Positions 3,602-3,678 of a stretch of 64,000 nucleotides of DNA are shown here, in pieces. The notes beneath the pieces were generated by a model. That model ran no database searches. It saw nothing but the letters and a program-made list of their open reading frames with translations, and was not told where the DNA came from. Position numbers and translations under genes: made by a program. Position 1 is the stretch's first letter, and the number at the start of each line of letters is the position of its first letter. Source of the stretch: a virus; IMG/VR virus record IMGVR_UViG_3300045988_112927, positions 120,519 to 184,518 of that record. One strand, 5' to 3'.

Positions 3602-3604
3602 ACT

Positions 3605-3678
3605 GTGGCTGTGGCAGAAATGGCTTATGCACCGGATTGTGGCTCCGGACTATGCGGGTTCAAATCCCGTCGGTCACC
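3605..3678 (+). tRNA. tRNA-His(GUG) lacking a genome-encoded G-1
   Basis: Acceptor GTGGCTG/CGGTCAC, discriminator C. Anticodon stem CCGGA/TCCGG with loop TTGTGGC. Position -1 is T (3604). Confidence 0.6.

Follow-up and report, generated by a model that had tools for sequence, protein, structure and literature searches.

In the window (by which we mean the whole 64,000-nucleotide stretch of viral DNA analysed here), a tRNA-His gene without an encoded G-1 is found together with a gene of the Thg1 family, and the addition of G-1 to this tRNA by the encoded Thg1-like protein (TLP) appears chemically feasible by analogy with the closest characterized homologue. Across related and unrelated phages, the TLP and the G-1-less tRNA-His are nevertheless inherited independently, and their pairing is to be seen as plausible chemistry, not as a demonstrated dedicated system. 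The explanation that we prefer, and whose truth we regard as evenly poised, is that the TLP would serve tRNA 5'-end repair in general and would also be able to complete this tRNA-His.

The tRNA-His gene and the array around it

The window comes from a gut phage that is uncultivated and belongs to a large family, with genomes of about 150-200 kb. The window carries genes of large phages (topoisomerase II, NAD-dependent DNA ligase, helicase, primase, tail lysozyme/amidase/SH3 lysin, PhoH), and for the 514-aa protein encoded just 3' of its tRNA array there are 515 relatives in IMG/VR, most of which lie on contigs of 100-200 kb. No near-identical DNA was found among the deposited phages. The features that concern the tRNA-His are the following:

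1967..11857, + strand: tRNA array, 15 tRNAs called by ARAGORN and one extra Rfam tRNA match
3529..3603, + strand: tRNA-Met(CAU), initiator-like, directly upstream of tRNA-His (ARAGORN, parser, sequence)
3604, + strand: position -1 of tRNA-His, a T, with no pairing with C73
3605-3678, + strand: tRNA-His(GUG), 74 nt (ARAGORN call, Rfam RF00005, alignment, fold)
12339-13883, + strand: 514-aa DUF2828/DUF7788 protein (PHROG 850 'RNA-binding protein')

ARAGORN, Rfam and the fold all give a cloverleaf with a GUG anticodon, and the Rfam model RF00005 scores 51.9 bits on 3605-3678, against a gathering score of 29. Direct reading of the sequence gives a 7-bp acceptor stem (G3605-G3611, GTGGCTG, with C3671-C3677, CGGTCAC) and C3678 as the discriminator; no encoded G-1 pairs with C73 to extend this stem to 8 bp. 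C3678 is followed by TATA, so the gene carries no encoded CCA. The unconstrained MFE fold of 3600-3682 is again a cloverleaf, in which 3600-3604 and 3678-3682 are single-stranded. The stem, the C73 and the T at 3604 that the sequence-only reading of this DNA had claimed are thus confirmed. The gene looks functional; its -1 base is U, its base 73 is C, and it corresponds to a standard 7/5 tRNA that has retained C73.

The same reading had named beforehand the one arrangement that would undo it, namely an acceptor stem offset so that a G is templated at -1. This arrangement is excluded by what it does to U8 and to the T arm, and by the homologues that encode CCA. Indeed, if G3605 were the templated -1, U8 would be lost and a G would occupy position 8, a U.U mismatch would appear at 7:66, the T stem would be reduced to 4 bp, and the homologues would carry CCCA in place of CCA. 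In the alignment, homologous phage tRNA-His genes with CCA terminate in ...CAC-C-CCA, and N73 is therefore the C that follows CAC.

As for the base at -1, T is found at this position in 13 of the 15 tRNAs of the array (none of which encodes CCA), so that tRNA-His has simply adopted the default leader base. The upstream tRNA-Met has the hallmarks of an initiator, with a U1.U72 mismatch and an anticodon stem closed by three G:C pairs. The Rfam alignment is confined to its core (37.7 bits), and our own parse places its discriminator at A3602, which leaves only C3603 and T3604 before the +1 of tRNA-His.

Several other elements were observed in the array. An ochre-suppressor-like tRNA (anticodon UUA, 3456-3528, + strand) adjoins tRNA-Met with no spacer, and the relatives L003/L064, L066 and L120 carry CUA (amber) suppressor tRNAs instead of UUA; these suppressor tRNAs hint at stop-codon reassignment in part of the phage family. 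A full-length ROOL RNA (Rfam RF03087, 313 bits) lies within the array at 3879-4529 (+ strand), directly 3' of tRNA-Gln(UUG). At 4538-4655 (+ strand) is a 118-nt Rfam tRNA match (45.9 bits, no ARAGORN call) with the acceptor stem GGGGAAA/TTTCCCC and an insertion of about 45 nt, which may be a tRNA with an intron or of some other unusual kind. In the closest relative (L061, 1-9000; marker protein 88% identical), all the tRNAs encode CCA and the tRNA-His has G-1, a difference that points to wholesale swapping of tRNA sets between close relatives.

The Thg1-like protein and its expected chemistry

The second element of the pair is listed here with the genes that will matter for its interpretation:

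18091..18930, + strand: calcineurin-like metallophosphoesterase (Pfam, PHROG)
20738..21559, + strand: RNase T/DEDD-type exonuclease (Pfam RNase_T, 8.6e-18)
21581..22996, + strand: RNA ligase, candidate RNA-repair partner (phrog_968, 7.4e-65)
29758..30678, + strand: Thg1-like protein (TLP) of bacterial type, 306 aa (Pfam, PHROG, PDB, alignment)
30761-33268, + strand: 835-aa protein with shoulder and repeat domains of the Major Vault Protein, immediately 3' of the TLP

The TLP had been recognized from two core motifs, and this identification is upheld: the ORF at 29758-30678 contains both AIRIDGKAFH and GYTQSDEITL, and Pfam, PHROG and structural matches all point to the same family. It matches Pfam Thg1 (PF04446) at 8.4e-28 (97.3 bits, cut-off 29.2), the Thg1C domain (PF14413) marginally (27.0 bits against a cut-off of 26.3), and PHROG 4717, 'tRNA-His guanylyltransferase', at 2.4e-86. 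The closest solved structure is that of BtTLP, the TLP of Bacillus thuringiensis (4KGK, E=8.2e-56), with both domains aligned, while the eukaryotic Thg1 chains match at only about 5e-8 (human Thg1 4.6e-8; yeast-type about 5e-8). The catalytic, metal-binding carboxylates D34 (in RIDGKAFH) and D79-E80 (in QSDEIT) do not vary among 11 family members and coincide with the motifs of BtTLP in the alignment. By these comparisons, the ORF encodes a bacterial-type TLP and not a eukaryotic-type Thg1.

BtTLP (PDB 4KGK/4KGM) is thus the known protein against which the phage TLP has to be read, as the closest solved homologue and one with the same catalytic motifs. It is shorter (245 aa, against 306 aa), the phage TLP having an insertion of about 50 residues (around 121-172) that is variable among its phage relatives. 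Unlike BtTLP, the phage protein is virus-encoded, lies beside non-tRNA genes and has an activity that is predicted. In vitro, BtTLP adds a templated G-1 onto C73-tRNA-His with a kcat/KM of 5500 M-1 s-1, which equals that of yeast Thg1; opposite A73 it is about 50-fold poorer and prefers U, and it favours filling the missing +1 of 5'-truncated tRNAs of several identities by 5-160 fold over -1 addition (PMC3061083). It is on this analogy that the addition of G-1 to the tRNA-His of the window by the TLP would be feasible.

Genes of this kind are already annotated in phages. The TLP has more than 562 matches in IMG/VR, it is present on contigs of several gut metagenomes, and 158-162 phage records, from many hosts, match Thg1 homologues. 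Its identity to a deposited phage record nowhere exceeds 55%. The annotated phage Thg1 homologues (Bc431v3 gp143, CBB_152, XacN1 ORF126/585, Fnu1 gp147, Xoo-sp13_127) share PHROG 4717 with the TLP of the window and, as here, they occur in phages that are large and rich in tRNA genes; the window differs from them in belonging to a family of gut phages that is uncultivated and counts more than 500 relatives in IMG/VR. The genome papers of Bc431v3 and XacN1 list phage Thg1 as a tRNA-modifying or tRNA-repair gene (PMC3601020, PMC5852040), that of CBB suggested that it assists the phage tRNA-His (PMC5259590), and a survey of jumbo phages has it restore the 5' nucleotides of tRNA (PMC7824862). It has also been proposed that Thg1 homologues may persist to repair mis-cleaved tRNA-His even when G-1 is encoded (PMC3245924). 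The Thg1 family, its presence in phages and its proposed service to phage tRNAs are therefore known already.

Some of the other genes of the window could belong with the TLP. Besides the RNA ligase, whose match to Pfam RNA_ligase (26.5 bits) falls slightly below the cut-off of 27, and the exonuclease, the window holds in total two calcineurin-type phosphoesterases and one HD-type phosphohydrolase. In the relative L003, the gene order is TLP, HD, phosphoesterase, exonuclease, RNA ligase; there, the metallophosphoesterase homologue is adjacent to the TLP, the RNA ligase homologue is 2.8 kb from it, and the exonuclease homologue lies between the two. Across 83 TLP loci, no conserved neighbour was found, none occurring in more than 15 of them, so the argument for a repair module rests on L003 and on the joint presence of these genes in the window, among whose proteins no domain of a polynucleotide kinase was identified.

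Distribution of the two traits across phages

In tRNA-His, position -1 behaves differently according to where the gene is found. Among the IMG/VR matches listed, which are an arbitrary sample, tRNA-His genes within tRNA arrays have G at -1 in 44 cases and T in 9, while the solitary, host-like genes listed have G in 30 cases and no other base. The premise of the sequence-only reading that bacterial tRNA-His normally encodes G-1 is therefore true of the solitary host-like genes (30/30) but describes the phage arrays less well (T in 9/53). T was also found at -1 in 5 of the 7 cultured phages sampled. Contigs of more than 70 kb that share the anticodon arm of the window are split between T and G (5 vs 5), and the prophage-type contigs of about 40 kb found with the same anticodon-arm search all have G-1 except L028 (46 kb; T-1, G73). 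When the base is not G, it is T (9/9 in the IMG/VR arrays, 5/5 in the cultured phages, 7/7 in the anticodon-arm set), the only other non-G bases being a C in Bacillus phage PHZU0001 and an A in the doubtful L086 call. The lack of an encoded G-1 is thus a common minority state among phage tRNA-His genes. Because this state is common and the TLP is a common accessory gene in this family, finding them in one genome is not surprising, and their co-occurrence is no more than what chance readily gives.

Examples of the widespread class that joins U-1 and C73 in a standard fold include L340 (PR1), L341 (nt-1), L342, L343, L346, L009, L035, L066, L362, L367 and L394, among others. G-1-less tRNA-His genes previously reported in phages are of the A73/U73 (8/4) type (PMC5389517), and our search of the literature found none on the standard-fold U-1/C73 phage tRNA-His or on its function in TLP-less phages. 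A further, recurrent variant was seen among tRNA-His genes with an encoded G-1, in which T+1 stands opposite C72 and leaves a 1:72 mismatch (L099 7827-7903, L374 2749-2825, L440 416-492); in L107 (5422-5493), also with an encoded G-1, T+1 stands opposite A72 and is paired. Mismatched 5' ends of the former kind are those edited by TLPs in the mitochondria of protists.

We compared the TLP status with the -1 and N73 state of tRNA-His in the relatives of the window and in unrelated phages. The combination of a G-1-less tRNA-His and a Thg1-family gene in one genome, which is that of the window, is found again in contig 3300045988_085326 (L022/L208), with T-1, C73 and the same Met-His junction, in L174, with T-1 and A73, and in Bacillus phage PHZU0001 (L356 3907-3980), with C-1, C+1 and A73. 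The latter is a complete genome of the Bc431v3 type, whose tRNA-His is without both of the HisRS acceptor-end identity elements. A TLP coexists with an encoded G-1 in the closest relatives, 3300024272_001728 (L061/L143) and 3300018427_000023 (L062/L141): their TLP is 72% identical and their 514-aa protein 88% identical to those of the window, and their tRNA-His, in the syntenic Val-His-Gln position, reads G-1/GTGGATG...CGTTCAC/C73/CCA. The same coexistence is seen in Xanthomonas phage Xoo-sp13, with G-1:C73 and CCA, and in Fusobacterium phage Fnu1.

Other genomes carry a TLP and no tRNA-His. This is so for Variovorax phage V45v66, a complete circular genome with eight tRNAs, and for a Mycobacterium phlei prophage, which has a TLP and whose only tRNAs are tRNA-Asn, Gln and Trp (PMC4860684). 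For several family members with a TLP, no tRNA-His was found in the visible 10 kb of the array. Among 77 further IMG/VR TLP loci with 10-kb flanks (L141-L217; 80 loci were returned overall), only L174 has a tRNA-His, and there is none in the 20-kb TLP flanks of Lak-A1, of the uncultured 595-kb phage LR756511 and of a Bacillus phage.

The reverse combination exists as well. Providencia phage PR1 (T5-like, complete, 118,537 bp) has a tRNA-His that reads T-1/GTGGCGG...CCGTCAC/C73/CCA, and no TLP was found in its six-frame translation with a phage-TLP profile run with filters off (best E=2); as positive controls, this profile recovered the loci of Xoo-sp13 (1.6e-77) and Fnu1 (1.5e-98). T-1/C73/CCA genes likewise occur in Proteus phage VTCCBPA139, in Vibrio phages nt-1 and F86 and in Streptomyces phage Beuffert, and the nt-1-like, T5-like and Streptomyces phages with T-1/C73 are probably TLP-less, as the TLP-positive listings omit their groups. 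In IMG/VR, a back-translated FNIPKEEV pattern gave at least 120 matches, and L009, L028, L033, L035, L043 and L066 were not among the matches listed. Co-inheritance of the TLP and of a G-1-less tRNA-His is thus not what is found, be it across related or unrelated genomes.

Explanations for the pairing and comparison with known systems

In the explanation that we prefer, host RNase P would cut the tRNA-His precursor at the normal -1/+1 site and leave a 5'-phosphate on G+1, with no G-1. Such a normal cut is expected because U-1 forms no pair with C73 and because U is an ordinary leader base of the array. The TLP, supposing that it is template-dependent like BtTLP, would then activate this 5' end and place a single G across from C73; this would restore the G-1:C73 pair that is read by HisRS, and the reaction probably occurs in infected cells. 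The reason for the existence of the TLP, though, would not be G-1 addition but general tRNA 5'-end repair or quality control, within an accessory RNA-repair and tRNA-maintenance set that would also comprise the RNA ligase, the phosphoesterases and the exonuclease, and its presence may simply render the loss of the encoded G-1 harmless. The TLP is indeed retained in relatives with or without an encoded G-1 in tRNA-His. Against this preferred explanation, the U-1/C73 tRNA-His may need no G-1 addition at all, since the class occurs in PR1, which has no TLP. The 5-160-fold preference of BtTLP for truncated tRNAs, the lack of conserved neighbours across the TLP loci and the failure to identify a polynucleotide kinase domain likewise count against it.

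The stronger proposal, in which the phage has swapped the encoded G-1/RNase P route for one in the style of eukaryotes or archaea and the TLP serves chiefly to add G-1 to the phage's own tRNA-His, strikes us as clearly unlikely. It would explain well why U-1 goes with a C73 that is kept both as template and as HisRS identity base, and why an enzyme of the BtTLP type, efficient at G-1 addition opposite C73, is at hand; the persistence of both traits in L022/L208 and the TLP with T-1 tRNA-His of L174 are in line with it, as is the guess already made in the CBB paper that phage Thg1 helps the phage tRNA-His (PMC5259590). Yet the nearest relatives keep the TLP and encode G-1, just as Xoo-sp13 and Fnu1 do, V45v66 and the M. 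phlei prophage have a TLP and no tRNA-His to serve, the tRNA-His of the TLP-positive Bacillus phage has an A73 opposite which a templated enzyme would give U-1, and PR1 has its U-1/C73 tRNA-His with no TLP. In view of these cases, the idea of a TLP dedicated to tRNA-His is not supported. From the suggestion that the phage supplies its own G-1-adding or 5'-end-repair activity, we keep the missing templated G-1, the conserved C73, the genuine TLP and the chemistry of BtTLP, but not the notion that the TLP is there for tRNA-His; of the two activities, 5'-end repair is the better option. A narrower version, in which the TLP has now become obligatory for the tRNA-His of the window and of the L022-type lineage, the other U-1/C73 phage tRNA-His being functional through undescribed routes, seems to us rather doubtful. 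Such routes would be called for in the T5-like, nt-1-like, Streptomyces and gut phages of this class because most of them have no TLP.

A functional link between the two genes could also be lacking altogether, with a tRNA-His that works or idles without G-1 and a TLP that acts on other substrates, be they host or phage tRNAs whose 5' end was damaged by defence nucleases or cut wrongly by RNase P, or other RNAs in need of 5' activation or capping. PR1, the frequency of T-1 tRNA-His within arrays, the TLP-positive genomes without tRNA-His, the preference of BtTLP for truncated tRNAs of any identity, and the RNA ligase and phosphoesterases of the window are all consistent with this. It remains rather unlikely in our opinion: where a C73 tRNA-His without G-1 and a templated TLP share one cell, the efficiency measured in vitro makes G-1 addition difficult to escape, and nearly all T-1 genes have conserved C73, which suggests that the logic of the G-1:C73 pair still counts. 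We find it highly improbable that the cut of RNase P falls one base early, after C3603 and before T3604, giving a mature tRNA-His with U-1 and its 5' phosphate at -1. This would fit the near-exclusive use of T when the -1 base is not G, and the spacer of just 1-2 nt to the upstream tRNA in the window, L066, L033 and L043. However, T is the commonest -1 base of all the other array tRNAs, so that it carries no special signal in tRNA-His, and the -2/-1 cut of RNase P in tRNA-His depends on a G-1:C73 pair (PMC3245924) that U-1 cannot form with C73.

The known system that the window resembles most is the eukaryotic Thg1 and archaeal TLP route, where one genome has both a gene without G-1 and an enzyme of the Thg1 family; the C73 template of the window matches the archaeal case of G-1 addition. 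In eukaryotes, the coupling of the G-1-less tRNA-His with Thg1 is universal, and the addition of G-1 opposite A73 uses no template. Unlike in eukaryotes, the coupling fails across the phage relatives. The tRNA-His of alpha-proteobacteria, and the (8/4) tRNA-His of their phages, are also without an encoded G-1 (Mukai et al. 2017; PMC5389517), but they have A73 or U73 and a co-evolved HisRS or an 8/4 structure, while that of the window is a 7/5 tRNA with C73. If the set of RNA ligase and phosphoesterases predicted here works with the TLP, the window would resemble the Pnkp/Rnl1 kit by which phage T4 restores damaged tRNAs. The T4 enzymes heal breaks in the anticodon loop, whereas a TLP rebuilds 5' ends. 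Neither a T4-type kinase domain nor a target nuclease was identified in the window.

What is at stake depends on which of these explanations is right. If the TLP completes the phage tRNA-His, the phage would carry out by itself a step of tRNA identity that is normally hard-wired in bacterial genes, and bacterial-type TLPs would gain a concrete role in vivo. Were the TLP obligatory for this tRNA, it would be the first case in a bacterial virus of a post-transcriptional G-1 pathway. Taken as a whole, phage TLPs behave like general accessory genes of tRNA maintenance. The more interesting lead is the standard-fold U-1/C73 class and its function in phages without a TLP. Indeed, a sizeable share of phage tRNA-His is without G-1 even where there is no TLP, which raises the question of how, or whether, it is charged by a G-1-dependent HisRS.

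Two further observations concern the surroundings of the TLP. The vault-like protein encoded immediately 3' of it may form, with the 514-aa protein and the ROOL RNA, a large ribonucleoprotein set. The + strand also carries, at 25587-26342, 29009-29563 and 33306-38000, genes of NAD+ salvage and synthesis (Sir2, NMNAT-like cytidylyltransferase, isochorismatase/nicotinamidase, PRPP-synthetase-like, NAMPT and NAD synthase), a set that resembles the NAD-reconstitution pathways already known in phages.
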